From assembly GCA_040390065.1 (NCBI GenBank), contig JAZJZE010000010.1:1-64000 (forward strand): a stretch of 64,000 bases of DNA, given 5' to 3'. Positions within the stretch are counted from its first letter, which is position 1, and each line of letters opens with the position of its first letter. The notes beneath the pieces are model-generated. The model was not told where the DNA came from. It did no database searches and was given only the letters and a program-made list of their open reading frames with translations. The position numbers were made by a program, and so were the translations under genes. This document shows, in pieces, positions 334 to 49,863 of the stretch. Source of the stretch: a bacterium (GTDB lineage Archaea > Thermoplasmatota > E2 > JACPAO01 > JAHFTW01).

Positions 334-336
334 GCT

Positions 337-8902: not shown

Positions 8903-9217
8903 TCACTTTCCGGCCGCGGCCCGGCGCTGCGCACGGCGCTTGCGGGCGATGGCCGCGTCGATCTCGCGGTCGATCTTGGCGAACGTCTCGGCGGCGGGAG
9001 GAACCGCGACGGGCGCTACGGCCGGCGGCGCGGGCGGGAGCACGCGCAGGACGTAGGTCAGCGCCCCGTCGCGCTGGAAGCAGACGTGGATGCCGATCTC
9101 GCGCTTGAGGCTGTCGGTGGTCGTCCACTGGGGCCGCTCGGTGCAGTCGGCCGCGCGGCGCGGCGCTCCGGCGCAGCCGGTCAGTATCGCGGCGATGATG
9201 GCGAGGTAGGATCTCAT
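8903..9217 (-). CDS. Putative lipoprotein
   Basis: MRSYLAIIAAILTG-C lipobox; first gene behind the 9245-9273 promoter. Confidence 0.6.
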   Translation of the reverse strand: MRSYLAIIAAILTGCAGAPRRAADCTERPQWTTTDSLKREIGIHVCFQRDGALTYVLRVLPPAPPAVAPVAVPPAAETFAKIDREIDAAIARKRRAQRRAAAGK

Positions 9218-17296: not shown

Positions 17297-17370
17297 CGTT
17301 GTGGCCTCTCTAGTTGCGGCGTTGTCCTTCCTCGTTAGTATAGCAGATGGCATGCCATCTGTCAAGGCCT
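17289..17370 (-). repeat. Promoter/operator/leader cassette, copy 1
   Basis: About 82 bp identical, apart from one indel, to 38120-38200. TTGACA-17-TATACT with palindrome CAGATGGCATGCCATCTG. Confidence 0.92.
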
Positions 17371-19958: not shown

Positions 19959-21752
19959 CTATCGCGGCTTCACGAACAGGATCTCGGCCGCGCGCAGTTC
20001 GCCCTTGGACGGATAGGTCAGGACGCCCATCGTCTTCAGCTCGCCGACCACGCGCGCGTAGTAGCCGCCGGCGGCGTCCATCTGGGAGAGGTCTGCGGCC
20101 GCGCCGCGCGCCAGGCTCTGCGGGTAGGTCTGGATGAGGTTGCGCAGCAGGCGCTGGTGCGACGGCCCCAGGCGCGCCAGGACGTCGGCCTGGATCTCCT
20201 CGTTCGTCTGGTGCGCCTTCCCGGGGTCCGCCTGCGCCTCGCCGGCGTCGGTCAGCAGGAGCGCGCCGCCGGAGGGGTAGTCGACGAGGCCGGCCGTCTT
20301 CAGCTCGCCCACGATCCTGGCGTAGTAGCCGCCGCTCGGGGTCATGCCGGCGAGCACGGCTACCTGCGGCCGTTCAGGCTCCATCACGCCCAGCTGCGCG
20401 AGCCAGGCGAGCGTGTTGAGGACGCGCCGGTGGGACGGGCCGAGCTTTACGTCGCCGACCATCTCTCCGACGGCTCGGTGCTGCGCCGCGAGGGCGGCGG
20501 CCATCTTCTTGCCAGCAGGCGTTTCGGCCACCGTCTTCGGGAGATTCACAGCGTCGAGACCCATCTTCCAATTCTCCATCGCCGCGCGCACGGACGCTCC
20601 CTGGGCTGGCGGCATGGACGCCGGCCGGAAACGGTCGAGGACCTTCGTGACGACCAGGATGGCCCCGACGGCCGCTTCCTGCACCTTGCGCGCCTTCTCC
20701 AGCGCGACCTCGAGGCGCTTGACCTGGGTCTCCCTGAGGACTGGGACCTCGACGGGAACGATCTTGACGCCCGCGTCCTTCGGGATCTTCGCGCGCGCGG
20801 CGAGCTGCCGCTCGAGCGTCCTGACGCGCTCTTGCAGGAGCTTCGGGTCCTCAGCCTTCGCCTTCTCCACGGTCGCGGCCATGGCCTCCCTGAGCTGCGC
20901 GATGTCGATGGGGGCCAGCTCGCGCGCGGCGCGGTGCTCGCCGACCTTGGGGGTGGCGGAGGCGTCGAAGGTGCGCTTGGGCGCGATGCGGATCTGCTTG
21001 TTGACCTTGAGGAAGGCGGGGCTCCAGACGTGGCAGGTGCCGGTCTCGAGGCCCGGCAACCGCTCGATGACGCCCTGGTCGATGTCGTGGGCGGCGATCC
21101 ACTCGCGCATCGCCTTGCGCTCGTGGGCGCCGGTGAGGCGGAAGGCGAGGACGGTCTGGCAGCCGTTGAGCGCTTTTTTGTTAATTTCCTGGGGGCGGGG
21201 CGAAAGAATTACGACGCCCATGCCGAAGTTGCGGCCGATCTTGATCTGGCGCACGAGGCGGTGCAGCATCATCTGCTCGCCCGGCTGCGGGTTCTGCGGC
21301 ACGAACTCCTGGCCCTCGTCGAGGATCATGCAGATGACCGACGGGGCCCGCTTCTTGCGGGCAAAGAGTCGGTCGGAGAAGCCGGCGATGAAGCGCGCCT
21401 TGTCGGCGTCGGTGTCGAACTGGGAGACGTCGATCACGGCCGAGATGTTCTTGTCGACGACGACGTCGGCGATGAGCGCGCCGCCGCCGGGTTCAAGCGG
21501 CACGTCGCCATGCAGGCCCCCGAAGACGGGGACCGGCAGGCCGGGCCCATTGCCGTCGCGCGCCAGGCGCAGGCCGTAGGCCACGCCGACAGGGTCGAGC
21601 CAGACGACCTGGACGCCGGCGTCGTACAGCTCCTCGAAGAGCTTGCCGGCGGCGTGGGTCTTGCCGCTACCGCGGGCGCCGATGAAGGCGACGGCCTCGG
21701 TGGCGATGTCGGCGGGCACGGCGAGATCCTTCGACAGGTGCAGCATCTTCAT
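19959..21752 (-). CDS. HerA/FtsK-like (DUF87) ATPase with tandem C-terminal winged-helix-like repeats
   Basis: Walker A GARGSGKT, WLDPVG, Walker B MILDEGQEF, GRNFG; two LGPSH...GGYYAR(I/V)VGELKT repeats. Confidence 0.8.
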   Translation of the reverse strand: MKMLHLSKDLAVPADIATEAVAFIGARGSGKTHAAGKLFEELYDAGVQVVWLDPVGVAYGLRLARDGNGPGLPVPVFGGLHGDVPLEPGGGALIADVVVDKNISAVIDVSQFDTDADKARFIAGFSDRLFARKKRAPSVICMILDEGQEFVPQNPQPGEQMMLHRLVRQIKIGRNFGMGVVILSPRPQEINKKALNGCQTVLAFRLTGAHERKAMREWIAAHDIDQGVIERLPGLETGTCHVWSPAFLKVNKQIRIAPKRTFDASATPKVGEHRAARELAPIDIAQLREAMAATVEKAKAEDPKLLQERVRTLERQLAARAKIPKDAGVKIVPVEVPVLRETQVKRLEVALEKARKVQEAAVGAILVVTKVLDRFRPASMPPAQGASVRAAMENWKMGLDAVNLPKTVAETPAGKKMAAALAAQHRAVGEMVGDVKLGPSHRRVLNTLAWLAQLGVMEPERPQVAVLAGMTPSGGYYARIVGELKTAGLVDYPSGGALLLTDAGEAQADPGKAHQTNEEIQADVLARLGPSHQRLLRNLIQTYPQSLARGAAADLSQMDAAGGYYARVVGELKTMGVLTYPSKGELRAAEILFVKPR

Positions 21753-22117
21753 GGTGTGGCTCCTTCCGGCGGCGGCTCGTGCAGCTCCATCCCCTCGAGC
21801 CGGATCACGATGCGGTCCGCCTTCGCCGGGAACTTGCGGATGCGGGCGTCGATGATCTTGCAGTCGTCGGTGAGGATGCCGCGCTTGACGAGACAGTCTT
21901 GCGTCACCTTGAGACAATTGTCGTAATCGATCTGGGCGAAGTTCTTGAGATAAAAGTCGAAGCCGATGCGGTAGTAGGGCTTCCCGACGACGGCGACCTT
22001 CGGCAGCGAGAGGCGCAGGCGCGTCTCGTACTCGGTCTTCGCCGCCGTCGGGAAGTGTCTCCCGCGCCAGGCCGCATTCGTGGAGAGCGGCTTGACGTGG
22101 AGCGTCAGGATCAGCAC
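21749..22117 (-). CDS. rusA: RusA-like Holliday junction resolvase
   Basis: PLSTN...IDYDNCLKVTQDCL...GILTDDCKI. Confidence 0.8.
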   Translation of the reverse strand: MLILTLHVKPLSTNAAWRGRHFPTAAKTEYETRLRLSLPKVAVVGKPYYRIGFDFYLKNFAQIDYDNCLKVTQDCLVKRGILTDDCKIIDARIRKFPAKADRIVIRLEGMELHEPPPEGATP

Positions 22118-22120
22118 GGT

Positions 22121-22420
22121 TCAGTTCTGGCCGCCCCGGTCCGGCTTCTCGACCTTCTCGATGCGGACGGCCTGGAAGGCGGTGTGCTTGACCTTCACGT
22201 GCGCGTCGATGTCGAAGGTGTGCGTCCAGCCCTCGTCGTCGGTGAACTTGATCGTGGTGATCCCGAGCTTCTGGGCCGCGGCGATCATGTCCTCCTTGCG
22301 GTCCTTCGCGCGGTCCTTGAGCGTCCCGGACTCGCGCTCGGCGATGATGTAGGCCTCGGCGGCCTTCTGCACGACGTTGAGCTTCTGCTTCATCCCAGGC
22401 ATGATCGTCTGTTCGGCCAT
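22121..22420 (-). CDS. Hypothetical protein
   Basis: MAEQTIMPGM... with AGGAG RBS. Confidence 0.6.
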   Translation of the reverse strand: MAEQTIMPGMKQKLNVVQKAAEAYIIAERESGTLKDRAKDRKEDMIAAAQKLGITTIKFTDDEGWTHTFDIDAHVKVKHTAFQAVRIEKVEKPDRGGQN

Positions 22421-22642
22421 GGCGTTGTCTCTCCTTTTCGCGGCGTTCAAAGCTGGCGGCACGGGACGAGGCCGCGCGGGTCGGGAATGGCGGCGTCCGA
22501 GTGGACGATGGCCTCGGCGTTCCCGAAGCCGTCGTCAAGGCGGACGGTGTAGGCCTTGCCGTCCTTGTAGACGACGCGCGCGCGGATCAGGATGGTCTCG
22601 GGGTCCAAGGTCGGGCTCTCCTTGCGGCGGTGCGGCGGTGTC

Positions 22643-29804: not shown

Positions 29805-31070
29805 TCAGGCGATCGCGGCGATCCAGCGGTACTTCACGCCGTCCTTCTCGAGGTCGCGGCAGGTGCCGGCCAGGTCGGTGCCGGCCTTCTGCGCGGCCTT
29901 GGCCGCCTTGAAGATCGCCTCGTCCTGGGTGAAGTGCTTCTGCTGGTCGGGCTCGGCGCGGATCACGTAGGCGTCCTCGCCGAAGTATTCCGTGGAGGCG
30001 GCGGAGTAGACCTTGAACTTGAACGGGATGTCCTTGCTCGCCGGAGTCTCCTCCTTCACCTTGAAGACGTCGACGGCCTTGGCGGTCTTCGCGGCCACCG
30101 CCTTCCAGGCCTCCGTCGCCGCCTCGGCCTTCTCGAAGTCTCCGCCGGGCTGCTGCGCGACCCACGCGTCGAACTGCTCATGCGGGACGCCCTGCTTCTT
30201 GGCGGCGTCCTTGGCCCAGGCCAGCTTCTCGGCCGGCGTCGGCTGATGCCCGCTCGGGGTGGGCGGCGGGGTGTACTTCTTGGTAGTCTCGTCGGGATGC
30301 GCTTTCGCGGTGGGGTCGGCGAGCAGGTGCAGGTTCTGCGGCAGTTCCAGCTCGGCGCGCTCGTCGAGAGCCACAGCGCGGCTGAGGTCGTCCGACTCGA
30401 TGCCCGGGTTGAGCTTGGCGAGCGGGCGGATGACCGACTTCTTATACATCCAGTCGGGGTCGTTCTTCCACGGGCCATCGTTGGCGGCCATCGACTTCGC
30501 CTTGCTCGTCCGGTTGATCTCGTCGACCGTCTTGTAGATCACGCCCGTGAGCACTCCGGCCTTGTTCCACGAGGCCGAGACGTATCCTAGGACGGCGCCT
30601 CGGTCGCCCTTGGCCGGAGTCCACTCGAGGAACGGTCCGTTGGCCTTGACGCCGTAGGCGAATATGTCCTTTTCGCGCACGGCCTCGGCGACGACCGTCT
30701 CGACGCCGGCGTCGCGCTTCATCATGAGGATGATGGCGCGGTAATCGACGATCAACGTGCACTCCATCTGCTGGGTGTGACCGTTCTTGCGCGGGATGAG
30801 CCAGGTGCCGCCCGCGCCGGCGCCGGCCGGCAGGCGGAGCCGCGCCGACTCCATGACGCAGCCGAGCACCGATGCCGTAGTGCAGTCCTTCAGCTTCGGC
30901 ACGCGGCTGACGGCGGTCATGGCGATCTGGAACAGACGCTCGACGCTGATGTGCTTGCCGAGCAGGGCGGCCATCTGGCCTTTGTGCTGGGCGATCATCT
31001 GCTCCATGCGCGCGACGGCGGGGTCCTGCTTGACGATCTCTCCGGTCTTGGCTTCGGCTCCTGTGGTCAT
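29805..31070 (-). CDS. recT: RecT-family recombinase with C-terminal extension
   Basis: PKLKDCTTASVLGCVM...WLIP...VDYRA...VREKD.F...GPW...WMYKKSVIR. Confidence 0.88.
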   Translation of the reverse strand: MTTGAEAKTGEIVKQDPAVARMEQMIAQHKGQMAALLGKHISVERLFQIAMTAVSRVPKLKDCTTASVLGCVMESARLRLPAGAGAGGTWLIPRKNGHTQQMECTLIVDYRAIILMMKRDAGVETVVAEAVREKDIFAYGVKANGPFLEWTPAKGDRGAVLGYVSASWNKAGVLTGVIYKTVDEINRTSKAKSMAANDGPWKNDPDWMYKKSVIRPLAKLNPGIESDDLSRAVALDERAELELPQNLHLLADPTAKAHPDETTKKYTPPPTPSGHQPTPAEKLAWAKDAAKKQGVPHEQFDAWVAQQPGGDFEKAEAATEAWKAVAAKTAKAVDVFKVKEETPASKDIPFKFKVYSAASTEYFGEDAYVIRAEPDQQKHFTQDEAIFKAAKAAQKAGTDLAGTCRDLEKDGVKYRWIAAIA

Positions 31071-31717
31071 TGGTTGTCTCTCTCCCTTTGGTGCTTCCAA
31101 AAATGCCCGCCAGCCCGGATGCGCTGCCCCCTGATGACGCGGGAAATCGCGCTCGAATGGATCCCGGTGGCGCGTGCGGCATCGTTGACGGATTTAAAAT
31201 AGGCCGTGTTGTTCGCGGATCCATCCATCCGAATAACTGGCTTGAGCATGAAGTCTGGGTGCTCTTGGCGATATCGACGTCGGTCTGCGCCAGTCTTCTC
31301 TCGCCTCTCTGCAGACCACGGCTTCCGATTATCCTGCAGCCGCTTGACCGTTGCGACCCTCTGCTCGGGCGTCATCCTTGCCCACTGTTCTTTGCCTTTT
31401 ATCGATAGGTTCGCTCGCGCCGCGAGAGGGAATGTCTTTCCCTTGCCGCCGGTTCCTCCGGGCGTCATGTTGTATTCGGGCCGGAGCGTGGCGATATGAT
31501 GAATCTCTCGTGCGTCAAGGTCCTCGACGATGCATCGCTCTAAGACGGCGAATTCGAAGGCATCTTTGCCGTGCTTCCTGAAGGCGCGCCCGATCACGCT
31601 CCTGGCCTGGTGGGTCTTGGTGCGGTGTTGGATGAAGCGTTTGTGGAAGTTGCGCGTCTGCCCGATGTAGCGATTGCCGGTCTCGGTGTTGGTGATGATG
31701 TAAATCCCGCTCTCCAT
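31067..31717 (-). CDS. GIY-YIG homing endonuclease with NUMOD-type tail
   Basis: SGIYIITN...RYIGQT...R..QH; C-terminal YFKSVNDAARATGI...I; visibly lower GC. Confidence 0.88.
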   Translation of the reverse strand: MESGIYIITNTETGNRYIGQTRNFHKRFIQHRTKTHQARSVIGRAFRKHGKDAFEFAVLERCIVEDLDAREIHHIATLRPEYNMTPGGTGGKGKTFPLAARANLSIKGKEQWARMTPEQRVATVKRLQDNRKPWSAERREKTGADRRRYRQEHPDFMLKPVIRMDGSANNTAYFKSVNDAARATGIHSSAISRVIRGQRIRAGGHFWKHQRERDNQ

Positions 31718-37755: not shown

Positions 37756-38127
37756 TTAGCGGACCTCCGCGCGAGCGATGGCGGCGCGGGCGATGTCCAT
37801 CGGTCCCTTCATGCGCGAGGGGAGGTCGACGTCATCCGCTTCGACCAAGAGGCGAAGCGCCTGCAGAATCGAGGACTTCTTGGCCTCGGCCTTCTCGAAG
37901 CTCCGGCCGCCAGCGAAGGCGTTCCAGAGCCAGCCGCGGATGCGCTTGGCCTCGTCCGCGTCGTTGCAGGTGATGTAGTCCAGGATCAGGTTGTTGTCGA
38001 CCGGCGTGCCGCGCAGCAGCGCGTAGTTGCGGACGATCTTGGCGCCTTCGAGCAGGTATGGGGAGTTCTCCGTCTCGTACTCGTCGTGGTGGTCCGGCGT
38101 CGCTTTCGTCGCCTTCTTCGTGGTCAT
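37756..38127 (-). CDS. Hypothetical early protein
   Basis: First gene behind promoter copy 2; starts MTTKK. Confidence 0.6.
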   Translation of the reverse strand: MTTKKATKATPDHHDEYETENSPYLLEGAKIVRNYALLRGTPVDNNLILDYITCNDADEAKRIRGWLWNAFAGGRSFEKAEAKKSSILQALRLLVEADDVDLPSRMKGPMDIARAAIARAEVR

Positions 38128-38200
38128 CGTTGTGGCCTCTCTAGTTGCGGCGTGTCCTTCCTCGTTAGTATAGCAGATGGCATGCCATCTGTCAAGGCCT
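38120..38200 (-). repeat. Promoter/operator/leader cassette, copy 2
   Basis: Direct repeat of 17289-17370. Confidence 0.92.
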
Positions 38201-38858: not shown

Positions 38859-39485
38859 TCAGAGCCCCAGGAGAGCGCGCAGGTCGCCCAGCGGCAGGTC
38901 CATCTTGAGCTGCGGGCCGTGGTCGAAGCGGCCGCCCACGATGCCGGCCATGTAGTCGAGCGTGGTGATCTTGCCGAGGTAGGCGAGCGGGGCGGGCGCC
39001 TGCCAGTCGGTCGCGGCCTCGAGGTAGGGCACCTTGCTGGCGACGTCCTCGAGCAGGCTCTTGGCCGCGGGGCCGACGTTGAAGCCCAGGCGGCCGACGT
39101 AGCCGGGGGTGTGGCTCGCGCTGTAGAGCGCGGCGCCGCCCAGGTGGAAGATCGGCAGCTTGTCCTTGGCCAGGATGAGGACGTCGCGGCACGGCCCCGC
39201 CATGAGGAACTTGGCGTTGACGGCGTAGGCCGCGCAGGAGCCCACCGTCGCGCTCTTGTCGAAGCCGACCTGCCACTGGCCGCGGCTGCCGAAGGGGCCG
39301 CCGATCTTGACCCAGTCGGCCGGCGTGAGCGTGCCCGGCGCTGGCGCCTTCGCGGCGGCGACCGCGTCGGCCCCGGCCTTCACGAAGGCGACCTCCTCCG
39401 GCGTCATGGCCGGCGGCGCGGCGTCCTGGGCGCGGGCGAGCGAGCTGCCGAAGCAGACGAGGGCGGCGAGCATCCAGTGCTTCAT
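38859..39485 (-). CDS. Exported protein in the lysis cassette
   Basis: Signal peptide MKHWMLAALVCFGSSLARA-QD; amphipathic beta-like segments. Confidence 0.6.
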   Translation of the reverse strand: MKHWMLAALVCFGSSLARAQDAAPPAMTPEEVAFVKAGADAVAAAKAPAPGTLTPADWVKIGGPFGSRGQWQVGFDKSATVGSCAAYAVNAKFLMAGPCRDVLILAKDKLPIFHLGGAALYSASHTPGYVGRLGFNVGPAAKSLLEDVASKVPYLEAATDWQAPAPLAYLGKITTLDYMAGIVGGRFDHGPQLKMDLPLGDLRALLGL

Positions 39486-39784
39486 GGGGTGGTCTCCTTG
39501 AACGTCGGGGCGGTGGGCCAGTCGACGAGCGGTGGGCCGACCTCGGCCCCGTCGGTCACGACGTACATCTGGGCGGGCTTGCCGAGCGCGGCGACGCGCG
39601 CGCGGGCCTCGCCGGCGCGGGCGGGGTCGTACAGCTCGAGCGCTGGCCGCGCCTGGCAGACACCGACTAGGGCCAGGGCCGGCTTGGCGCTCTCCGGCAG
39701 GCGCGCGAGCTGGATCTGGAAGCCCAGCAGCGTCAGCGCGCCGGGGCAGAGGTAGGCGGTGAAGGCGACGGCGAGGTGGGTCAT
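39482..39784 (-). CDS. Hypothetical protein
   Basis: Coupled ORF MTHLAVAF... Confidence 0.5.
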   Translation of the reverse strand: MTHLAVAFTAYLCPGALTLLGFQIQLARLPESAKPALALVGVCQARPALELYDPARAGEARARVAALGKPAQMYVVTDGAEVGPPLVDWPTAPTFKETTP

Positions 39785-40350
39785 GCCGCGACGAGCCTCC
39801 ACTCGCGCAGCCAGCCGTGCCAGCGGGACGTGGCGATCGACGGCGAGACCGTGAGGTTGGGCGGCGCGCCGCTGCGCTTCCAGCAGCGGTGGGCGGGGTC
39901 GCTCGGGCAGGCGCAGTTGTTCGCCTTGCCCTCGGTCATCCAGTCGGAGCCGTCGGGCAGCTTGACGGCCCAGGCGTGGCCGTCCGCGCCCTTGTCGGGC
40001 CACCAGGAGGCGTCGCGGACGGCGCCGGCGGGGGCCTCATCCCACGTAAAGACCGCGCCGGTGTCGTGCCTGTAGAGGCCATCGGCCCAGACCTGCCACT
40101 GGTCTGCGGCCTCGAAGGCGTACCCGCAGGCGCAGCGCTTCGGCCAGCGAGGGTCCGCACGGGCGACCTCTGGCGGGTTGCTCCCGGTGTAGTCCTTCGC
40201 CGGGTCCTCGGGGCGCTCCTCGATCACCACGCTCCTCGCGTTGTGGTAGCCGGGAGACAGGACGCATCGTGCCTCGCTGTAGCGGCGCAGCGAGTAGCGC
40301 GCGCGGCGCATGTCCTCGAGCAGGAAGCAGACGCTCGTGTTGGGGGTCAC
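39781..40350 (-). CDS. DUF6527-like protein
   Basis: W...PPNLTVSPSI...WHGWLR. Confidence 0.6.
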   Translation of the reverse strand: MTPNTSVCFLLEDMRRARYSLRRYSEARCVLSPGYHNARSVVIEERPEDPAKDYTGSNPPEVARADPRWPKRCACGYAFEAADQWQVWADGLYRHDTGAVFTWDEAPAGAVRDASWWPDKGADGHAWAVKLPDGSDWMTEGKANNCACPSDPAHRCWKRSGAPPNLTVSPSIATSRWHGWLREWRLVAA

Positions 40351-40919
40351 GCGGTCGCCTCCGGCTTGTAGAGGTAGAAGCGGATGAGCGGGCGCTGGTG
40401 CTCGAGGAAGCCGCCGGAGAGCTTGCAGCGCTTATTGGCGTGGCCGACGTTGGCGATCACTGGGACGAGCGCGCCGCCCCAGCTGTCGCTCGCCTCCATC
40501 GGGTCCGGGTATCCGGCGGCCAGGTGGCCGTGCGGGTACTCCTCGAGCGTGGCGAAGCCGAGGCCGCCGCGCTGGGCGTGCTCGGAGAGCCGCTCCATCG
40601 TGTCCTCGCGCCAGTCCGGGTCGCCGCGGATGATGGCGATCTGCTTGTCGGCCAGGTGGCCGGCGAGCTTGCCGTAGCCGGCGGCGGCCGCGGCGATCTC
40701 GGCCGCGGCGCCGTTGCAGTGGGTGTCGGCCGGCCCCGGCTGGCCCGGGGCCCAGGCGGGGTTGCCGATGGCGGCGTCGCAGGCGGCGCGCAGGCGCGCG
40801 GCGGCCGCGGCGCGATCGGCCTCGACCGAGTAGCCCGAGCCGAGCGGGATGGTGACGTCGGCGCCGGGGCCGGCGGGCTTGTAGAGCAGCAGGCCCAGGA
40901 GGTCCTCGAGGAGGCTCAC
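40347..40919 (-). CDS. Putative endolysin (CHAP/NlpC-like Cys-His peptidase)
   Basis: DTHCN...HGHLA...IANVG catalytic-like pattern; follows a membrane protein after the tail genes. Confidence 0.5.
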   Translation of the reverse strand: MSLLEDLLGLLLYKPAGPGADVTIPLGSGYSVEADRAAAAARLRAACDAAIGNPAWAPGQPGPADTHCNGAAAEIAAAAAGYGKLAGHLADKQIAIIRGDPDWREDTMERLSEHAQRGGLGFATLEEYPHGHLAAGYPDPMEASDSWGGALVPVIANVGHANKRCKLSGGFLEHQRPLIRFYLYKPEATA

Positions 40920-41404
40920 AGGGCCTTCTTCCCGGCGAGCTGGACGGCGAGGTCGTTGAGGCGCTCGTGGATCTTGGTGCGCCCCTCGCTGGAGGCGGTG
41001 CGGTTGGCCTCGAGGGTGATCTGCAGGCTCCTGAGCGTCTCGACGTGAGCGCGGTTCTCCTCGTGGATGCTGGACAGGACCTTGGACAGGTCCTCGCGCT
41101 CCTGGCGGTCGTGGGCGAGGTGGTTCTCCATGAGCTTGAAGGTCTGCTCGCGGGCGGCGCGGATCTCGTTGATGAGGGCCTGGCGCTCCTGCTCGCGCGC
41201 GGCGGTCTCGCGGGCGCGCTCGGAGGCGGCGCTGGCGGCGTCGCTGCGGGCGTTGGTCGCCTCGGTGCGCCAGCCGTCGACCTTGGCCTTGGCGGCGTAG
41301 GCGGCGATCACCACGGCGGCGAAGGCGGCGAGGGCCAGCAGCGCGGTCACCGGGCCGCTGCGCTGGAGGGTCTGGCCGAAGACGGCGGACAGGATGTATT
41401 CCAT
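40916..41404 (-). CDS. Putative holin/membrane protein with coiled coil
   Basis: N-terminal TM VTALLALAAFAAVVIAAYA followed by a coiled coil. Confidence 0.5.
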   Translation of the reverse strand: MEYILSAVFGQTLQRSGPVTALLALAAFAAVVIAAYAAKAKVDGWRTEATNARSDAASAASERARETAAREQERQALINEIRAAREQTFKLMENHLAHDRQEREDLSKVLSSIHEENRAHVETLRSLQITLEANRTASSEGRTKIHERLNDLAVQLAGKKAL

Positions 41405-41886: not shown

Positions 41887-42483
41887 TTAAGCGATGATGA
41901 AAACGTCGTCCGCCGACGGCGCGCCGGTGAAGGCGCCAGCGACGGTGATGGTGCCGCTGTCCGGGTCGTATCCGGTGATGGTGCTGCCCTGGCCGGCGAG
42001 GTCGCCGGTGGTGAAGTAGAGCGATCGACCGGCGTAGGCGTTGACGTTGGAGTTGGTGACGTCGGTCGTGAAGGCGGCCGCCTCGAGCGTTCCGGCGATG
42101 ACGGCGCCCAGGACCATGCTCGAGAGGGAGGCCTGCATCTTGGCCGGGACCGCAGCGTCGCCGGCGACGGCGGCGACGTTCGCGCCCTGGGACTGCGCGG
42201 GTCCGGCGTACGGCGCGTCGCCCAGCGTCGGGGTCCCGTTGGCGTATATGACCTCGCTGGTCAGCACGCCGGAGATCGCGGCCGGGTAGGTGCCCCGGTA
42301 GTAGCCGCTGGTGCCCTGCTCGGTGAGCGCGATCGCGTACTGCGCCCAGTGGCCGCCGTTGTAGGCCTCCCAGCCGCCGAGGCCGGAGTTCAGCGTCGTG
42401 TTCCACACGCGGCCGTCTGGGTGGTGGGAGACGGCGTAGAGCGAGAGGCCCGTCGCGCCCGTCGTCTCGATGGGGGTGGGCAT
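41887..42483 (-). CDS. Putative virion structural protein
   Basis: T/G/A-rich; YAGRSLYFTTG.LAGQ..TITGYD...FTGAPSADDVFII. Confidence 0.6.
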   Translation of the reverse strand: MPTPIETTGATGLSLYAVSHHPDGRVWNTTLNSGLGGWEAYNGGHWAQYAIALTEQGTSGYYRGTYPAAISGVLTSEVIYANGTPTLGDAPYAGPAQSQGANVAAVAGDAAVPAKMQASLSSMVLGAVIAGTLEAAAFTTDVTNSNVNAYAGRSLYFTTGDLAGQGSTITGYDPDSGTITVAGAFTGAPSADDVFIIA

Positions 42484-42490
42484 TGGTCTC

Positions 42491-45400
42491 CTAGAATGGC
42501 CACGGCTCCGCTTTGAGGCGATACCATCCCGTGTACGTTCCCGCCGAAGGGATGAAGGTCATGCTCGACAGCTCTACGCCCGAGTAGGTTCCGCCCAGCT
42601 TGCAGGTCTCCAGGTGTGGTCCGGAGTATGGAGCCGACGCGGTCCCCTCCCGGATGACCACCTTCGTCCCGTTGTTGCGGACCGTCTCTAGCACGATCCG
42701 AACCGTCTGCGTCTGCCCGACGGCGCATGTGTCCCGGTTGAAGGCCCAGTATCCATTCGACTCGCTGTTGGCGATGATCGTGCCCCCCAGCGAGTCGTTG
42801 CACGGCGTTGTGTACTGGTGGCGCCCAGAGGTCGTGTCATTATTGATCGTCAGCCGGAATTCGGACGCCGACGTGTTGCACATGGCATCCATTTCCAGCA
42901 CGTACGTGTACGACGAGCGGAGATTCGTGAACGTGACACCGCTCGCCGTCGTCATGACCCCGCTCGCCACCAGGGTCTCAGCTCCGTAGACGACCCTGGA
43001 ATAGTTGGCCGTCGAGGTCTGCGTCTGGTACCCGAGCGTCACGGTCGAGTTGAAAATTTCAGTTCCCGCATGCGTGTTGTTCCCGGTGAAGGCGATGTTG
43101 CCCGTGAGGCTCGTGATGTCGGCGTTCGTGCCGGACGACGCCTTGGCCGCGAACGCGGCCGTGACGGTCGACAGGTCCACGTTCGCGGCGGGGACGGCGG
43201 CGGTCGCGCTCTGCTTCGTGGCCAGCGCCGCGGTCACCGTAGAGAGGTCTATATAAGCGACGGGGACGGGCGTGATGAGGCTGATCGTGTTGCCCGACTT
43301 CGACAGTCCCGTGCCGGCCGTGACGTTGCCCAGGCCGGTGAACTGCACGAAGGAGACGGGGTCGGTCCCGACCGTGGTGACCGAGGACGTCGTGACCCAG
43401 CCGGTGTCGGAGTTGGTCGTCCCCGACGTGACGAACACGGCCACGCCGGAGGCCATCTCGTAGGCGACGTTGAAGTCGGTGGTGCGCGTGAGGACGAAGA
43501 AGGCGCCGACCCCGTTGACGGTGACGCCGTAGATCCCGTTGTGCGAGGGCGTGCCTTCATCCTTCACGAGGACGCGGTCGTTGACGTTCGGGGTCGCGCC
43601 GTCGACCGTCAGTAGGCCGAGCGACAGGCCGGTGATCGTCGCGTTGACGCCGGAGGACCCATTGTCGTAAGAGTTGGTCGGGAGCGCGGCCGCGGTCGCC
43701 AGCCGCCCGGCCGCCTTGAAGTCGAGGCCGTTGATGTTCGCGTCGACGTAGTTCTTCGTCGCGGCGTCCTGCGCGGACGCGGGGTCGGCGACGTTCGTGA
43801 CCCTGTGCGACCCGGCGTCGACGGACCCGTCGCCGAGGACGCCGAACATGGTGGTGGCGTCCTGGCTCGAGACTTTGAGGGTGTACTCCGACGGAGCATT
43901 ATTGGAGCGGACGTTGAGCTTGGCGGCCGGGTCGAAGACGCCGATGCCGACGTTGCCGCCGTTGCGGAAGACGAACTGGTTGCTGTTGCCGTCCTCGAGG
44001 ATGAAGGAGTTCGTGGCCTCGTCGGAGGCGAGGCCCATGCGCATGTTGTACGGGTTGCCGTCGCCGTGGTGGAAGTAGAAGTAGGCGGCCGCGTTGTCCT
44101 TCGCCTCGACGCGGAGGATCGTGCTGCCGTTGACGTTGTTGTCGCCGATGTCGAGCGCGATACCGTTGGCGGGGACGGTGCGCCCGATGGAGACGCTCTT
44201 GCCGTCGCGCGACAGGGAGACGCGCTGCAGGTCCTGCTCGCCGATGCTGATGAGGTTCTGGCCGCCGTTCTGGGAGTACTCGAACCAGTTCTTGGGGTTT
44301 CCGCCGGCGTCGATGTAGACGAGCTTCACCGGCACGCTCGCCGAGCCCATCGTCAGCGTGGCCGTGTTGCTCGAGTAGGAGAGCTTGTCGTCGCCGCCGA
44401 ATCCTGCGGTGTCTCTGAACTGCAGGTCCCCGATCGAGCCGCCCGGCGGGGCCGACGCGAACTGGCCCGTCGAGTAGATGACGGTCTGGTCCGGGAGGCG
44501 GATGACGCCGGCGGCCAAGGCGATGCCCGAGGAGGCCTGGATGGCGAAGACGTTGGCGCCCGACGTGGAGACCACCAGCGGCCCGGTCATGGTGCCGCCC
44601 GCCGACGGCACGAAGGCGAGGTCCTGCCAGTAGGCGTGGGTCGGGTCGGTGGCGACCAGCCCCTGGCCGGCGACGGGGGGCGAGGACAGGTTCACGATGA
44701 CCGCCGTGTAGGTCGAGGCCAGCGCGTAGGCGACGGCGGTGACGTCGCTCGGGAACTGCCCCGGGCCCATGTAGGACGGCCGCAGGCCCGTCAGGAACGA
44801 GCCGACGCCGTGGATCTCGCCGCCCACGGTCAGCGTGCCGACGACGACGGCGTCGTCGCGGACGGTCAGGCTCGACCCGGCGAGCATCGTCTGGGAGTGA
44901 CTCCAGGCGTTGTCGGCGTTGGAGAGCGCGACGCTGCTCGACAGGGCCGGGACCGAGAACTGGTGAACGTCCAGGACGCGGCCCTCGGTGCTCAGGACCA
45001 CCTGCAGGAGCTGGCCGCTGCCGCCCCAGGTGCCGCTCGAGACGCCGGTGGCGTTGAGCTTCTGCGCCACGACGCCCGCGCCGAGGAATCCGTCGTCGAC
45101 CTGCGACGCCGGGAGGACCACGCCGCTCGGCACGAGGCCGGCCGTCAGCTGGTCGGCGGGCAGGGCGATGTTCTGGGCGGTCAGGCTCGTGAGACGCCCG
45201 TCGCCGCGGCGCACGGCGGTCAGGGTCTGGGCGGGGCCGCCGACCGATCCGACGGCCAGGCCGGTCGCGTTGAGGCTCGAGACGCGCACGCTCGCGCCGA
45301 GCGCCCCAGCGAGGATCGTGACGGGGTCGATGGTGACGTAGGTGGGAAGCGTGCCGGTCCCGATCTGCGGGGGCGGCAGGGTAATGGTCGACTGGCTGAT

Positions 45401-46237
45401 TCCGTAGACGCGGCCGTCGCCGTGGAGGACCAGCTGCGGGATGGTGAGGTAGCCGCCCCAGGTGCCGGCCTGGACGCCCGTGGGCGTGATCGAGGACGCG
45501 GCGATGGTCGTGGGCAGCGTGCTCGGGATGAGGTTCGAGATCGGCATGGGCGCGGTGAGGAATGCCGCGCCGCCGCTGATGTTGCCGTGGATGGAGGCCG
45601 CCTGGACGTAGTCGATGGAGGTGCTCGAGACGGCGACGTCCTGGGGCAGGTCGCCGGCCAGGAGGTTGGCGGGGGGGATGTCGGTGATGTTGGTGCCGAG
45701 GACCTGCGGCGAGCCGGTCCAGGACGGCGCGGCGGCCGGCCCGTTGGTCTGAAGGACGCGCCCGGCCGTGCTCGGGGCCAGGACGGTCATGGTGCCGACG
45801 TTGGAGAAGTACGGGATGCTCCCGGTCGAGGCGGTGACGAAGTTCTGCCCGGTGCCGCCGTACTGCGTGCCCACGACCGTGCCGCGCCAGGCACCGGACG
45901 TGATGCTGCCCACGCCGGTGATCCCGGTGTAGCTCCCGGCCACGCGCGGGTTCGGGACCGTGCCGCTGGCCATGGCCGAGGCGTTCAGGCCCGTGATGCC
46001 GGCTCCGCCGCCGGCGAGGTCCGTCACGGTCAGGTTCGTGACGTGGAGGTTCACGACGGTGACCGTGCTCGCGGTGAGCGTGCCGCGGACGGTCCAGGTC
46101 CCGACGCTGGCCTCGGCGGCCTGCGGCGTCGATGTGTTGAGGATGCAGTTCGGGCAGCCGACAGGGGGAACCGGGCCAGCGACGGCCGTGCCGGCGGCCG
46201 CCAGAAGCAGCGCGACGAGCGCGGCGCGTGGTCTCAT
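42491..46237 (-). CDS. Long tail fibre-like protein with N-terminal signal peptide
   Basis: 1248 aa, G/T/S/V-rich. Fibre motifs QDAATKNYVD, DRVLVKDE...NGIY, GNVGIG, SGTNADITSL. N-terminus MRPRAALVALLLAAAGTAVA-GP. Confidence 0.8.
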   Translation of the reverse strand: MRPRAALVALLLAAAGTAVAGPVPPVGCPNCILNTSTPQAAEASVGTWTVRGTLTASTVTVVNLHVTNLTVTDLAGGGAGITGLNASAMASGTVPNPRVAGSYTGITGVGSITSGAWRGTVVGTQYGGTGQNFVTASTGSIPYFSNVGTMTVLAPSTAGRVLQTNGPAAAPSWTGSPQVLGTNITDIPPANLLAGDLPQDVAVSSTSIDYVQAASIHGNISGGAAFLTAPMPISNLIPSTLPTTIAASSITPTGVQAGTWGGYLTIPQLVLHGDGRVYGISQSTITLPPPQIGTGTLPTYVTIDPVTILAGALGASVRVSSLNATGLAVGSVGGPAQTLTAVRRGDGRLTSLTAQNIALPADQLTAGLVPSGVVLPASQVDDGFLGAGVVAQKLNATGVSSGTWGGSGQLLQVVLSTEGRVLDVHQFSVPALSSSVALSNADNAWSHSQTMLAGSSLTVRDDAVVVGTLTVGGEIHGVGSFLTGLRPSYMGPGQFPSDVTAVAYALASTYTAVIVNLSSPPVAGQGLVATDPTHAYWQDLAFVPSAGGTMTGPLVVSTSGANVFAIQASSGIALAAGVIRLPDQTVIYSTGQFASAPPGGSIGDLQFRDTAGFGGDDKLSYSSNTATLTMGSASVPVKLVYIDAGGNPKNWFEYSQNGGQNLISIGEQDLQRVSLSRDGKSVSIGRTVPANGIALDIGDNNVNGSTILRVEAKDNAAAYFYFHHGDGNPYNMRMGLASDEATNSFILEDGNSNQFVFRNGGNVGIGVFDPAAKLNVRSNNAPSEYTLKVSSQDATTMFGVLGDGSVDAGSHRVTNVADPASAQDAATKNYVDANINGLDFKAAGRLATAAALPTNSYDNGSSGVNATITGLSLGLLTVDGATPNVNDRVLVKDEGTPSHNGIYGVTVNGVGAFFVLTRTTDFNVAYEMASGVAVFVTSGTTNSDTGWVTTSSVTTVGTDPVSFVQFTGLGNVTAGTGLSKSGNTISLITPVPVAYIDLSTVTAALATKQSATAAVPAANVDLSTVTAAFAAKASSGTNADITSLTGNIAFTGNNTHAGTEIFNSTVTLGYQTQTSTANYSRVVYGAETLVASGVMTTASGVTFTNLRSSYTYVLEMDAMCNTSASEFRLTINNDTTSGRHQYTTPCNDSLGGTIIANSESNGYWAFNRDTCAVGQTQTVRIVLETVRNNGTKVVIREGTASAPYSGPHLETCKLGGTYSGVELSSMTFIPSAGTYTGWYRLKAEPWPF

Positions 46238-46268
46238 GGCCCGGTTCCCCCTTTCCTGTCTCAGGTCG

Positions 46269-47156
46269 TTACGGAATCGCCAGCCAGCTGTTGGCCGCGG
46301 CGGCAGCCGCGCCGGTGACCGCCTGGGTGCTCAGGTACAGCTTCGTCGGAGCGCTGTTGAGGTACAGGAGGCACCCCTGGGGGTAGTCCTGCGTGGGCAG
46401 CGCGTTGACGGTCCCGAGGAAGCACAGCGAGCGCGCGAGCGTGCCCGCGGCCCCGCCGACCATCGTCGGGTGCGGCGTGGTGATGGGCGAGCCCGACGTC
46501 GCCAGCGTGTAGGCGACCGGCGACAGCCGCGCGCGCAGGAAGACGACGGTGGACGCGCCGCCGAGCCAGACGGCCTCGACCTGCGTGTGCAGGACCGGGC
46601 TCAGGTTGATCGCCGCCGCGAGGTTGACCGCGGTGTTGGAGGCGACGTCCTGCTTGAACCAGTCCCGGCCCTGGACGAGCGCGACCGCGTTGATCTTGAC
46701 GAAGGCGTCGTTGAGCCCGCCGGTCAGGTGCGCGCCGCTGACGCTGATCTCTCCGGAGGCAGAGGTCACCAGGGTCGTTCCGTTGTACAAGGTCCCGGCC
46801 GAGACCGCCGTGAGCGCGATGGCGGCGTCGCCGGCGGCGTAGACCGCCGTCACCGGCGCCCCGCTCGCGTTGATCGCCGCCTTCAGGCTCGTCGCGGCCG
46901 TCGCGGTCGTGGTGCCGATGGAGAAGTCTCGGCCCGCGATGAACGTGTACTGGGCGATGGTGAGCTGCGTGCCCACGAGCGTCGTGGTTTCGACGACCGT
47001 CACCGTCCCCGTGGCCGAAGCGGCGGCGAGCGAGGAGTTCGTGGCGATCGTAAAGCTACCCGTCGACGGCGTGCCGTCGTAGGTCGCGTGCGCGTACTTC
47101 GGCGCGATGCCGAGCGTCAGCAGCGCGAGGACGGCGGCCAGCATGGTTTTCTTCAT
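46269..47156 (-). CDS. Thr/Ala-rich tail-region protein with signal peptide
   Basis: MKKTMLAAVLALLTLGIAPKYAHA-TY; two repeats GRD(F/W)...A..L.AAIN. Confidence 0.7.
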   Translation of the reverse strand: MKKTMLAAVLALLTLGIAPKYAHATYDGTPSTGSFTIATNSSLAAASATGTVTVVETTTLVGTQLTIAQYTFIAGRDFSIGTTTATAATSLKAAINASGAPVTAVYAAGDAAIALTAVSAGTLYNGTTLVTSASGEISVSGAHLTGGLNDAFVKINAVALVQGRDWFKQDVASNTAVNLAAAINLSPVLHTQVEAVWLGGASTVVFLRARLSPVAYTLATSGSPITTPHPTMVGGAAGTLARSLCFLGTVNALPTQDYPQGCLLYLNSAPTKLYLSTQAVTGAAAAAANSWLAIP

Positions 47157-47172: not shown

Positions 47173-48039
47173 CTAGCGGTACTTGATGATCTTGTTGTAG
47201 ACGACGGACGGCTGCATGATGTTGTGCGGCTGGTCGCCGCCCGTCGGATCGGTGTTGCCGTTGGGGATGAGGGCCACGCTTGCCGACTGGGCGCCGGCGG
47301 AGCCGCGGCCGCCGCCGTGGGTGTGCGACGGCATCTCGGCGACGGTCAGCAGGTGCGTCTCCTCGCCGCCGATGCTGCCGACGGTGTTCCCCAATGTGGC
47401 CGAGGCCGCGCCGCCCGCGCCGACGGAGACGCGCCGCGCGCTCGGCGGCAGCTGGAAGGTGGTGACGCCGTCGCCGGCTCCGAAGGACACGCCGATGACG
47501 GCGAAGAGGGCTGCGTAGGTGGTCCGGCTCTTGAGGGAGGCGTCGGCGAACAGGTAGTCGGTCGGCAGGACGGGACCAGCGAAGTCGAGGACGGTCCCGA
47601 CCGGGACCGCCTGCGCCGGCGCGACCGGCGCGTTCACCCAGCTCCAGAAGGCGTTGCTCGCCCCGGCCGGCGGGGCGTTGCCGATGTTGTCGTCCTGCTC
47701 CGAGACGAACCACTGCCCGAGGCCGGCGGCGTCTTGACAGACCGAGGTCTTGTAGTACGTCGTTTCTGCGTTCCACTCGGGGATGCCCTGCTGCAGAAGA
47801 TAGCCGACCTGTGTGGAGTGCTCGAATCCGAACGAGTTGATGTCCTGCAGCAACAGGTCCTTGTTGTCGCCGTAGACCGAGGACTGAAAGCCCTCGTCCC
47901 ATGCCGGCAGGGACATGATCGTGGCCAGATCCTTGGTCTTGACCGGATCCCCGGCGACGAGCGAGCCGAACTTGGCGAAGTTGTCCGTGCTCCCGGTGCG
48001 CCCGAAAATCTTATGATTCTGGCGGGTGATCTTGGCCAT
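47173..48039 (-). CDS. Short tail fibre with tail-collar domain
   Basis: YLLQQGIPEW; PVGTVLDFAG...YAALFAVIG..FGAGDGVTTFQLP; GGEETHLLTVAEMPSHTH. Confidence 0.88.
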   Translation of the reverse strand: MAKITRQNHKIFGRTGSTDNFAKFGSLVAGDPVKTKDLATIMSLPAWDEGFQSSVYGDNKDLLLQDINSFGFEHSTQVGYLLQQGIPEWNAETTYYKTSVCQDAAGLGQWFVSEQDDNIGNAPPAGASNAFWSWVNAPVAPAQAVPVGTVLDFAGPVLPTDYLFADASLKSRTTYAALFAVIGVSFGAGDGVTTFQLPPSARRVSVGAGGAASATLGNTVGSIGGEETHLLTVAEMPSHTHGGGRGSAGAQSASVALIPNGNTDPTGGDQPHNIMQPSVVYNKIIKYR

Positions 48040-48042
48040 GGT

Positions 48043-48687
48043 CTAGAAGCTCCCCACTTCCGCGACGGTCACTCCGACGCCGGCGGGTGCCGGCAGGAAT
48101 CCCATGGCGTGGATGATCTTGAACAAGTCGTCGGTGTCGGATGTCAGGTGCTGGTACAAAATCTGCATGTTCCCCGTGACTTTCAAGTTCACATTTCCGC
48201 TAAATGAAGCATAGCAGATGGCGTCCAATGTCGCATAGGCATAGTCGCTGGATTGGACGGCCGCGAGGAACTGGATGACGCGGCGAAAGTCGCCGTCCTG
48301 CAGGACGGTGCCCACGAAGTCCTCGTAGGTCATCGTGTAGGTGGCGGGGGGCTGGACGGCGTCGTCGTAATTGGCGATGCCTGGGTAGGTGCCGGCGTCG
48401 GGGTCGTCGTAATCGACGAGCGGCAGGAAGACCTTGGACAGGTCGACCGAGAAAAATCTGCGGGTGACGCCTCGAAATTTTCCGAGCGTGTCGAGCTGCT
48501 TTCCGGCGGCCGTCTCGAGGTTGAAGGCATCGCGGACCTGGCCGTAGATGGCGTTGGCGATGACCCCGAAGTCGCCGTCTCCGACCATGAGAGCGCCGAT
48601 CGTGGCGTTGGCTCGCGGCTTGGTCACGTACTGCGAAATGAGCAGATTCGTGTAATAGGTCTGCAGGTCGGCGGCGGTCTGGTTCAT
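48043..48687 (-). CDS. Baseplate wedge protein (DUF2612-like)
   Basis: Y..LLISQY..KPRA; AFNLETAAGKQLDTLG; LPAPAGV. Confidence 0.82.
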   Translation of the reverse strand: MNQTAADLQTYYTNLLISQYVTKPRANATIGALMVGDGDFGVIANAIYGQVRDAFNLETAAGKQLDTLGKFRGVTRRFFSVDLSKVFLPLVDYDDPDAGTYPGIANYDDAVQPPATYTMTYEDFVGTVLQDGDFRRVIQFLAAVQSSDYAYATLDAICYASFSGNVNLKVTGNMQILYQHLTSDTDDLFKIIHAMGFLPAPAGVGVTVAEVGSF

Positions 48688-48690
48688 GGG

Positions 48691-49863
48691 CTAGGTGATG
48701 TCGATGTCGGCGGCGGCGAGCGTGAAGAAGTATTTATCCGAGGTCGTGTCGACGGTGTCGGTGTAGGACATGCCGTCGGTGGAGACGCCGACCGAGACGA
48801 GGATGGCGCGTGGCTCCACGGCGAACATGGCGCGGACGATGTCGCCGATGCTGGCGACCTGACTGAGCTTCCAGTGGTTGAGCAGGGCGGCGGCCAGCTC
48901 CTGCTTGAGGAGGGTGGTGTTGAAGGTCAGGCCGGCGACGGTGGGGATGATGCCGAACTGGACGTAGAGCCGCTGCTCGAGGCCGGCGTCCCAGGACATG
49001 GTGGCCAGCTGGCCGTTGGGGCGGGTGACGTCGTATGTGAGGGCGCCGCGCATGCCGCAGCCGGGGGCGAGCTTGCCGTAGAGAGCGGCGGCGATCTCGA
49101 CGTCCGTGCCGCCGACGACGATGGCCCAGATGCTGTGGGCGGGGGTGCCGTCGACGGTGCCGTTGGTGGCGTTGTTGATGACGAGCGCGTCGGTGACGTC
49201 GGTGATGGCCTGCAGAGCGGCCTCGACGGCGTCGGCGGGGCTCGTGGCGGCGAGTTGGAAGCTCTTGGCGCGGCGGATGCGCAGCTCGACGTCGGTCTCC
49301 TCTGCCTGTCCAAGGACGGCGCCGGCGACGGTCGGGTTGTTGACGTCGGTGACGCCGGACAGGGGGGTGGCCTGGATCGTGATCGTGTTGGGCAGGGGCG
49401 TGATCGGGCCCAGGGAGGCGGCCTGGAAGACGAGCGCCTGCGTGTCGGCGGCGCTGAAGGTGTAGCTCGAGATGAGGGTCCAGACGGTGTTGGCGTCTCG
49501 GACCTGGAACGGGATGAGGATGTCCTGGTCGAGGCCGGGAAGGGTGAGCGCGCGGTCGGTCGTGATCTCGACGGGGGTGGTCGTGAAGGTCCCGTTCTTG
49601 ATCGTCATGCCGTTGATGGCGCAGAGGCGCTGCAGGCTGATGCCGTAGGCGGTGTCCGGGTCGAACATGTTGTAGATGTCGACGAGCAGGTCCTCCACGT
49701 CGGAGACGGCCTGGGAGAAGATGCCGACCATCTGGCCGTCGGGCGACTCGCTATCGAGGTTGATGTCGGCGCCGTAGATGGCGAAGAGGGCGTTTTTGAG
49801 GCTCGTGGCGATCTCGTCGGTCGTGGCGACCTGCAGGCCGGTGGCGTTGATGAGGTTCGGCAT
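48691..49863 (-). CDS. Baseplate J/gp47-like protein
   Basis: YGADINLDSESPDGQ, FDPDTAYG..L..L, GQAEETDVELRIRR. Confidence 0.88.
   Translation of the reverse strand: MPNLINATGLQVATTDEIATSLKNALFAIYGADINLDSESPDGQMVGIFSQAVSDVEDLLVDIYNMFDPDTAYGISLQRLCAINGMTIKNGTFTTTPVEITTDRALTLPGLDQDILIPFQVRDANTVWTLISSYTFSAADTQALVFQAASLGPITPLPNTITIQATPLSGVTDVNNPTVAGAVLGQAEETDVELRIRRAKSFQLAATSPADAVEAALQAITDVTDALVINNATNGTVDGTPAHSIWAIVVGGTDVEIAAALYGKLAPGCGMRGALTYDVTRPNGQLATMSWDAGLEQRLYVQFGIIPTVAGLTFNTTLLKQELAAALLNHWKLSQVASIGDIVRAMFAVEPRAILVSVGVSTDGMSYTDTVDTTSDKYFFTLAAADIDIT

Follow-up and report, generated by a model that had tools for sequence, protein, structure and literature searches.

The window analysed here is the 64,000-nucleotide (nt) stretch at positions 1 to 64,000 (forward strand) of contig JAZJZE010000010.1, assembly GCA_040390065.1; the whole contig, 67,444 bp, is phage, with no host flank. 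On the minus strand, two adjacent genes in a myovirus late tail operon encode a fibre of 1248 amino acids (aa) and a companion protein of 295 aa, each of which begins with a signal peptide. That these are genuine, conserved signals of the Sec/signal peptidase I type is well supported by the sequences, a call made on layout and conservation. The fibre gene lies after the baseplate wedge genes and has fibre-type domains. The proteins thus look like phage fibres and appear to behave as Sec substrates, departing from the classical fibre trait of cytoplasmic synthesis without an export signal. We tentatively favour the reading that both are parts of the virion, the long one as a fibre, which would fold outside the cytoplasm and be added to the particle at lysis; we infer their localisation throughout.

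42491-46237, minus strand: signal-bearing fibre gene, 1248 aa (stop codon 42491-42493); open reading frame (ORF) with PHROG fibre-type domains
46178-46237, minus strand: predicted fibre signal peptide, residues 1-20, MRPRAALVALLLAAAGTAVA, predicted cleavage AVA↓GP; n/h/c layout
46269-47156, minus strand: signal-bearing companion gene, 295 aa; ORF with 38 homologues
47085-47156, minus strand: predicted signal peptide of the 295-aa protein, residues 1-24, predicted cleavage AHA↓TY

Signal peptides and their conservation

Both ORFs are coding-like for a 68% GC contig, with GC at third codon positions of 0.94 (fibre) and 0.96 (295 aa). The fibre ATG is preceded by a purine-rich stretch resembling a Shine-Dalgarno (SD) sequence (AGGAAAGGGGGAA, 46257-46245), and an SD-like GGGGA at 47173-47169 lies ahead of the ATG of the 295-aa ORF. 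An earlier, sequence-only reading of this DNA had claimed signal peptides on these two tail-module proteins, and its coordinates, N-termini and arrangement of n-, h- and c-regions with an AxA site were all borne out. No start downstream of the hydrophobic segment is available in either ORF: fibre codons 1-46 hold no in-frame ATG, GTG or TTG beyond the start ATG, and the sole alternative early start of the 295-aa ORF, Met5, precedes the hydrophobic core, so that translation from any of these starts would include it.

The n-regions are basic (R2 and R4 in the fibre, K2 and K3 in the 295-aa protein), and the best 10-mer of the fibre h-region has a Kyte-Doolittle mean of 2.84. Both cleavage sites follow the rule of small residues at -3 and -1 and no Pro at +1 (AVA↓G; AHA↓T). 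Neither signal contains a Cys, so there is no lipobox, and the fibre has RPR, not RR, and so is not a Tat substrate. A home-made scan for n/h/c layout, crude and weak by itself, scored these two proteins highest in the window (5.51 for the fibre and 5.57 for the 295-aa protein); it is conservation that decides. The same scan gave 5.13 to an N-terminal extension of the terminase ORF at 3522-5153. That extension, about 100 aa long, looks signal-like (MRAALLAALAALSLTGSVRA...), and the family match of the ORF begins at residue 105. The terminase start is probably mis-called, and the case is a warning that signal-like N-termini are common in high-GC DNA.

A search with fibre residues 1-500 returned 232 homologues. 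Among the first 87 of these, a hydrophobic 10-mer (Kyte-Doolittle mean of at least 2.0) is present near the N-terminus in 86, and at least one Lys or Arg precedes the hydrophobic core in all 87; the net charge of the n-region is zero in three (P0008, P0018 and P0062), whose annotated starts are long. A CxxC directly follows the signal in 78 of the 87. Typical cleavage sites read A-x-A↓Q or A↓(G/A)P, and the mature N-terminus comes in two subtypes, A↓QFCPxC and A↓(G/A)P(I/V)PPxGCPxC, with a third that has no cysteines. Homology among the fibres (…CIQNSAAPQNAQxNIGTATIRGTLT…) begins at the predicted cleavage site. In an alignment of 16 sequences, pairwise identity was 41% in the signal columns versus 73% in the following ~30 residues, so the signal is kept as a feature and not as a sequence.

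A profile of the signal plus the first domain found 129 clusters among 1.84 billion representative proteins. The match starts within the first 32 residues in 125 of them, the other four being repetitive or low-complexity. A hydrophobic core was present in 58 of 62 newly listed family members, and P0335, one of the four below the core threshold, has a signal-like start by eye. All 38 homologues of the 295-aa protein begin with MKK, an h-region and A-x-A, followed by a conserved DGTPSTGSF; in the 36 sequences aligned, position -1 is always Ala (Ala24). Many members of this family have a Cys in the motif LLCG, but with Leu at -1, which is not a lipobox. The check on homologues that had been proposed with the sequence-only reading thus came out in its favour in both families.

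It is very hard to sustain, against these data, the view that the hydrophobic N-termini are not export signals but a mis-called start, a compositional artefact of high GC or an uncleaved helix with another role. The flagged terminase extension speaks for that view. Against it are the lack of an alternative start, the retention of the feature in relatives from contigs of 54-68% GC and in 125 of the 129 clusters, the conserved small residues at -3 and -1 and the cysteine parity described below.

One further protein deserves mention beside this family. P0107 (1014 aa) is signal-bearing, contains cysteines and is fibre-like, and its longest contig is, at 94,088 bp, equal in size to that of P0005. 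In part of this lineage, a single phage may therefore encode two exported fibres.

Domains, cysteines and structural models

Behind its signal, the fibre divides into a conserved proximal part and a variable distal part:

46013-46177, minus strand: family-specific first mature domain, residues 21-75, C28-P-N-C31 plus PQ..A....GT.T.RGTLT
45488-46012, minus strand: conserved proximal shaft, residues 76-250, with nearly invariant columns (NAS..SGTVP, YTGITGVG, QYGGTGQN, LQTNG..APSW)
43109-43858, minus strand: widespread phage fibre or 'head decoration' module, residues ~794-1043
42494-43108, minus strand: C-terminal tip, residues 1044-1248, with four Cys

In the first mature domain, C28, C31, N34, Q39, R51 and G52 are invariant or nearly so. 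As the sequence-only reading had it, the CPNC (Cys28 and Cys31) lies just past the cleavage site, and the fibre's last 130 residues hold four more cysteines (1120, 1146, 1171 and 1212). The 295-aa protein has Cys245 and Cys262, both invariant in the 36 aligned sequences. The mature part has an even number of cysteines in 75 of 87 fibres (binomial p 3e-12, overstated because the sequences are related, although their tips differ widely in architecture despite that kinship) and in 36 of 37 mature members of the 295-aa family. In a control set of weaker, mostly signal-less matches the count was even in 19 of 33. Sequential cysteine pairs lie at most 35 residues apart in 291 of 347 cases. Even counts are as expected of disulfide-bonded exported proteins, and disulfide bonding, like export, is a well-supported prediction from these sequences. 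The earlier proposal of disulfide maturation in the periplasm therefore survives in part. The cysteine pattern fits disulfides made outside the cytoplasm, but a periplasm was not established, since the genome bin is archaeal and peptidoglycan hydrolases were seen only in relatives of this phage.

The two proteins are also rich in Ser and Thr, as had been noted from the sequence: together these make up 21.4% of the fibre and 22.0% of the 295-aa protein versus 10-17% of nine other structural proteins of the window. The figure for a 198-aa neighbour is 19.2%.

The proximal shaft is common to signal-less, ordinary fibres on IMG/VR contigs, where it is located 140-560 residues into the protein. Beyond phages, two genomes of the phylum of locus L082 (G572:C90 and G516:C11) have ORFs of 1716 and 3251 aa with many tandem copies of the module at fibre residues ~110-205, so the shaft module is also used in large cellular proteins. 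The module at residues ~794-1043 matches phrog_30390, phrog_27782 and phrog_2647 at E 6e-34 to 2e-19, and Phage_T7_tail (Pfam) at residues 794-836 with 24.4 bits, slightly below its cut-off of 25.2. It is also the only part of the fibre covered by tblastn matches to tail fibre genes of 26 GenBank phages. Fibre homologues range from 805 to 1777 aa, with a conserved N-terminal part and a C-terminal part that varies in length and domains; these include Peptidase_S74, collagen and Chlorovirus-repeat domains. Peptidase_S74 occurs in P0069 and P0142. Comparing the fibre with itself by BLAST revealed no significant repeats, and three units of ~75 aa (TGV..GT.GG...DGR) are seen only in the alignment consensus.

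The AlphaFold monomer of fibre residues 21-330 is extended and contains two small hairpin units, with a predicted local distance difference test score (pLDDT) of 73.5. An extended monomer is as expected if the protein forms one chain of an intertwined trimer. Foldseek returned no match to this model at E <= 0.001, and the fibre alignment profile searched against PDB sequences hit UspA1 alone, in a Gly-rich variable part. The model of the 295-aa protein (pLDDT 82.8) is a string of alpha/beta domains. In the PDB it comes closest to the tail sheath of cyanophage A-1(L), in the outer domain of that protein (8kee; E 6e-4 over 83 columns); FliD D2-D3 and flagellin outer domains come next. Among viral models it best matches a 737-aa protein from Rhodobacter phage RcTitan that is itself uncharacterised (BFVD E 7e-14). 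The likeness to the RcTitan, A-1(L) and FliD proteins is at the level of domain fold only, and a profile search of the 295-aa family against PDB sequences found nothing meaningful. As modelled, the companion is a protein of surface-exposed, decoration-type domains and is not fibre-shaped.

Place in the tail operon and possible fates of the signal-bearing proteins

The tail and structural genes run in the order protease-like and capsid genes, DUF3383 sheath, Pam3-type plug, E217-type hub and spike. Downstream of the spike follow Baseplate_J, DUF2612, a collar-domain fibre, the two signal-bearing genes, a 198-aa protein and a 152-aa immunoglobulin-like protein. The neighbours of the pair are:

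48691-49863, minus strand: Baseplate_J wedge gene (Pfam; syntenic in five related loci)
48043-48687, minus strand: DUF2612 wedge gene (Pfam; syntenic in five related loci)
47173-48039, minus strand: collar-domain short fibre, 288 aa, without signal, immediately upstream of the 295-aa gene (Pfam Collar 3e-13; PHROG tail proteins)
41887-42483, minus strand: 198-aa protein without signal, 7 nt downstream of the fibre gene

The intergenic gaps around the signal-bearing pair are 16, 31 and 7 nt, and the GC content of both genes is in line with that of their neighbours. A crude consensus scan of 38-52 kb, for sigma-70-type promoters only, gave one promoter-like and five terminator-like matches in all, with no such site between the collar gene and the fibre stop. 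The 198-aa protein has no Pfam or PHROG family match and is 44% identical to the protein downstream of the fibre in L082.

A scan with the family-specific N-terminal alignment gave two loci each in genome, metagenome and viral contigs, and our view of gene context rests on seven loci. By tblastn, L002 and L003 (both from IMG/VR), L082, L085 and L086 have their tail genes in the same order as the window, namely plug, hub, spike, W, J, DUF2612, collar fibre, (signal protein), signal fibre; L083 and L084 are fragments of the same arrangement. The N-terminal ~140 aa of the collar fibre are kept in L002, L003, L082, L083, L085 and L086. A second signal-bearing protein stands between collar fibre and signal fibre in the window, L082, L084 and L086, and is missing in L002, L003, L083 and L085. 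These second proteins, 295 to 543 aa long, are distant relatives of the 295-aa family (E 1e-9 to 1e-13). For 13 of the 38 companion homologues the longest contig has the same size as that of a fibre homologue, so companion and fibre homologues probably share a contig.

Long tail fibres of ordinary myoviruses are of the P2 gpH or T4 gp34-37 type. Such fibres, and the signal-less fibres of IMG/VR loci L004-L081, resemble the window fibre in their position after the baseplate wedge genes, their shaft modules (residues ~84-180 and ~800-990), their conserved N-terminal part and their variable tip. They differ in starting with a cytoplasmic anchor domain, in having no signal and fewer cysteines, and in showing no bias in cysteine parity in the control set. 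In 15 loci of more distant phages that share the collar fibre, the proteins encoded here lack a signal. Since ordinary fibres with the shared shaft modules begin with a different N-terminal domain and without a signal, the signal plus CxxC domain is a derived trait that has taken the place of the anchor found in other fibres. In 50,697 GenBank phages, tblastn gave no match to the 295-aa protein or to the first 240 aa of the fibre. The lineage is known solely from metagenomes.

Several features point to the virion: the place of the genes in the operon, closely coupled to structural genes at either end, the contrast between a conserved proximal and a variable distal part, the fibre domains with S74 chaperones in homologues, and the absence of any sign of lysogeny. 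Tailed-phage assembly is, in the textbook account, entirely cytoplasmic. On our proposal, both proteins would cross the cytoplasmic membrane via Sec late in infection, and signal peptidase would process them at AVA↓GP and AHA↓TY. Once outside the cytoplasm they would form disulfide bonds, fold oxidatively and trimerise. In the fibre, the CxxC pair now at the N-terminus might form a covalent knot that ties the trimer. The 1248-aa protein would be the long, host-range-determining fibre of a myovirus lineage, matured in the periplasm or wall zone. It would dock on finished, cytoplasm-built particles once the holin breach mixes the compartments, at or just before lysis. A rough estimate of our own, which is not a result, suggests that this is feasible: ~600 fibres in 1 fL would be at ~1 uM and, given an on-rate of roughly 1e6 per M per s, would need ~1 s to attach, with the envelope still confining the contents. 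Assembly may thus be split, with heads, tails and short fibres made in the cytoplasm, and the long receptor-binding fibres, along with a companion protein in many members, sent through Sec, oxidised and trimerised on the far side, to join at lysis; we advance this general scheme with some diffidence. Filamentous phage pIII is a receptor-binding protein with a Sec signal that is disulfide-bonded in the periplasm, but inovirus virions assemble at the membrane, where pIII keeps a membrane anchor. The window phage differs in being tailed, with a particle assembled in the cytoplasm, and no C-terminal anchor is seen in the two proteins.

A number of points weigh against virion attachment. We know of no tailed phage that adds an exported fibre. 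In the literature outside subscription journals and supplements, we found nothing that describes Sec-signalled fibres as a conserved family within the tail operons of tailed phages; what comes closest is a putative signal peptide predicted by SMART for pneumococcal PblB (PMC4508584). A signal-less collar fibre is already present and might itself act as the receptor-binding protein. Pfam, PHROG and lipobox searches revealed no endolysin, holin or spanin in the window. The usual N-terminal anchor of the fibre has been replaced, and among the profile clusters the new N-domain is never seen without the signal, as would be expected of an envelope anchor too. Finally, the closest architectural parallel, the MAT (mosaic adhesive trimer) proteins of Bdellovibrio bacteriovorus, are cell-surface fibres and not virion parts.

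The anchor replacement and the tie between N-domain and signal fit equally well the possibility, which we consider real but rather doubtful, that the exported fibres are displayed on the envelope of the infected cell and not on the virion. The N-domain would then anchor to an envelope component with the variable tip outward, and the display might be used in cell-cell contact or in the capture of new hosts. The presence of another, signal-less fibre in the phage suits this idea, and so does the layout of the MAT proteins, which are encoded by chromosomal genes of a predator. As far as the available part of their description goes, these have a signal, an invariable domain of ~130 aa directly after it, a long trimeric shaft like that of phage fibres and interchangeable tips, some with Peptidase_S74 (PMC10769870). 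The window genes differ in lying inside a phage tail operon, that part of the paper does not mention a CxxC for MATs, and the N-domains were compared by description only. PblA and PblB of streptococcal prophages are likewise tail-fibre-like proteins that end up on the bacterial surface. In the portion of the source at hand, S. mitis PblB is released through phage-induced permeabilisation and is needed for tail morphogenesis, but these are proteins of temperate siphoviruses of Gram-positive cocci, and no conserved signal-plus-CxxC family is described there (PMC4508584). Against envelope display, the genes lie within a late tail operon without a promoter of their own. No tyrosine integrase is encoded on the contig, and the longest contig with any of P0002-P0087 is 97 kb, which would confine expression to cells about to lyse. 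A diderm host would also retain a cleaved Sec substrate in the periplasm absent another secretion system, and none was seen. The sequence-only reading had allowed for two fates, attachment to the virion at lysis and exposure on the surface of the infected cell. Its premise of export is well supported, but the sequence data do not separate the two.

Two other roles seem to us less probable still. The T5 protein Llp is a model for a phage product that blocks the receptor. An exported blocker of this kind, masking the receptor to spare progeny from debris and to exclude superinfection, would account for export, for a variable tip like that of a receptor-binding protein and for late co-expression with tail genes. 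It is improbable here, since 1248 aa (up to 1777 aa in homologues) would be costly, the fibre is dissimilar to the collar fibre that would share its receptor (best E 0.23), and in a diderm host a periplasmic protein cannot reach the outer face of the receptor. It is more improbable again that the genes are morons, lysogenic-conversion cargo that lies in the fibre region by chance. The precedent is lambda Lom, which the part of the source available describes as an outer-membrane protein with a signal, whose gene lies between those for the tail tip and the fibre (PMC12309495). Lom is a small beta-barrel moron of lysogens, unlike the window proteins, which are fibre-type and coupled to late genes. 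The tight gene spacing without flanking promoter or terminator in our crude scan, the matching GC, the conserved position with co-inheritance of baseplate genes in seven loci, the fibre-type domains and the missing integrase all argue against cargo. More distant relatives with the same collar fibre may show such a case. In L115-L117 (IMG/VR; e.g. L116:9075-10002), a signal-bearing, PagL-like outer-membrane protein (E 8e-8) adjoins the collar fibre and is followed by an Amidase_2 endolysin; this gene looks like a Lom-style moron and implies hosts bearing lipopolysaccharide for those phages.

Whether the fibres join the virion or stay on the cell, the 129-cluster signal family would point to a process that has gone unrecognised: an extracytoplasmic step in virion maturation, or a late tail operon that decorates the envelope of the infected cell. 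If either is true, the annotation of fibre genes changes, because signal-bearing fibres are usually dismissed as morons or mis-starts. The expression of receptor-binding proteins for engineering would be affected too, because fibres of this kind may require oxidising conditions in the compartment where they fold. Motif and synteny delimit the family well enough to make it testable without its own host.

Host and other features of the contig

The contig was binned into a metagenome-assembled genome (MAG) of the archaeal phylum Thermoplasmatota. An archaeal tailed virus whose signals route the fibres to an S-layer or pseudo-periplasm would agree with that assignment. The SecY of the MAG is 79-80% identical to that of named Thermoplasmatota MAGs, the GC of the phage contig (0.682) is similar to that of the MAG (~0.667), and a search of the MAG that found SecY as a positive control found no Omp85, LpxC, DsbA, sortase or S26. 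We nevertheless regard an archaeal virus as highly unlikely. The tetranucleotide correlation of the contig with the MAG is 0.957; of the 15 other contigs above 20 kb, 13 reach 0.995 or more (contig C34 is also an outlier, at 0.938), and no sequence of 18 nt or more is common to the phage contig and other contigs of the MAG. The fibre N-terminus had one weak partial match in 300 other genomes of the phylum, and relatives are located in MAGs titled Elusimicrobia and Patescibacteria. Near the fibre, two relatives encode peptidoglycan hydrolases, Amidase_2 in L082 (E 3e-30) and Peptidase_M15_3 in L085 (25.3 bits, cut-off 23.2). In the window itself, a 104-aa ORF without family match (8903-9217, minus strand) has a bacterial-type lipobox (ILTGC). 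From the outlying composition, the relatives in those MAGs and the hydrolases we conclude that the hosts are bacterial and that this contig was probably mis-binned. In a sample of the Elusimicrobia phylum, 13 of 301 genomes gave matches, all of them to the generic shaft repeat only, except in the query locus's own genome.

The portal and terminase genes and the contig ends complete the picture:

886-2379: portal
3522-5153, minus strand: terminase large subunit (PHROG 38)

The end of the contig (65894-67444) is 79-82% identical to its start (window 1-1457) and carries a second, partial portal gene. This similarity of ~80% over 1.5 kb suggests a phage unit of ~65.9 kb whose assembly continues into a diverged second copy, through either tandem relatives or a chimeric assembly joining two variants. 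A Mu-F-like protein is encoded on the contig outside the window.

Among the remaining ORFs of the window, 52228-54729 matches a Dit-like family and the related phage loci with its C-terminal ~260 aa alone, and its upstream part is probably a spurious extension. Just beyond the putative lysis region, a 208-aa protein (38859-39485, minus strand) looks secreted, with the signal MKHWMLAALVCFGSSLARA↓QD and no family match. A 162-aa protein (40916-41404, minus strand) resembles a holin or i-spanin in having a single transmembrane-like segment at its N-terminus and a long helical stretch rich in charge. None of the ORFs in 38859-41404 has a Pfam or PHROG match, and matching a regular expression for lipoboxes to 36-42.6 kb turned up no candidate o-spanin. 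A tRNA-Met lies at 5848-5922 (minus strand), and an 859-aa ORF (19959-22538, minus strand) has a second terminase-like/AAA_10 match. A gene resembling GIY-YIG/NUMOD homing endonucleases adjoins RecT (31067-31717, minus strand). A 91-bp repeat occurs at 38111-38200 and 17280-17370 with 96.7% identity. Its copy at 38 kb holds the sole strong sigma-70-like promoter of 38-52 kb (TTGACA-17-TATACT with TG; 38195-38167, minus strand), and the repeat may be a repeated regulatory element.

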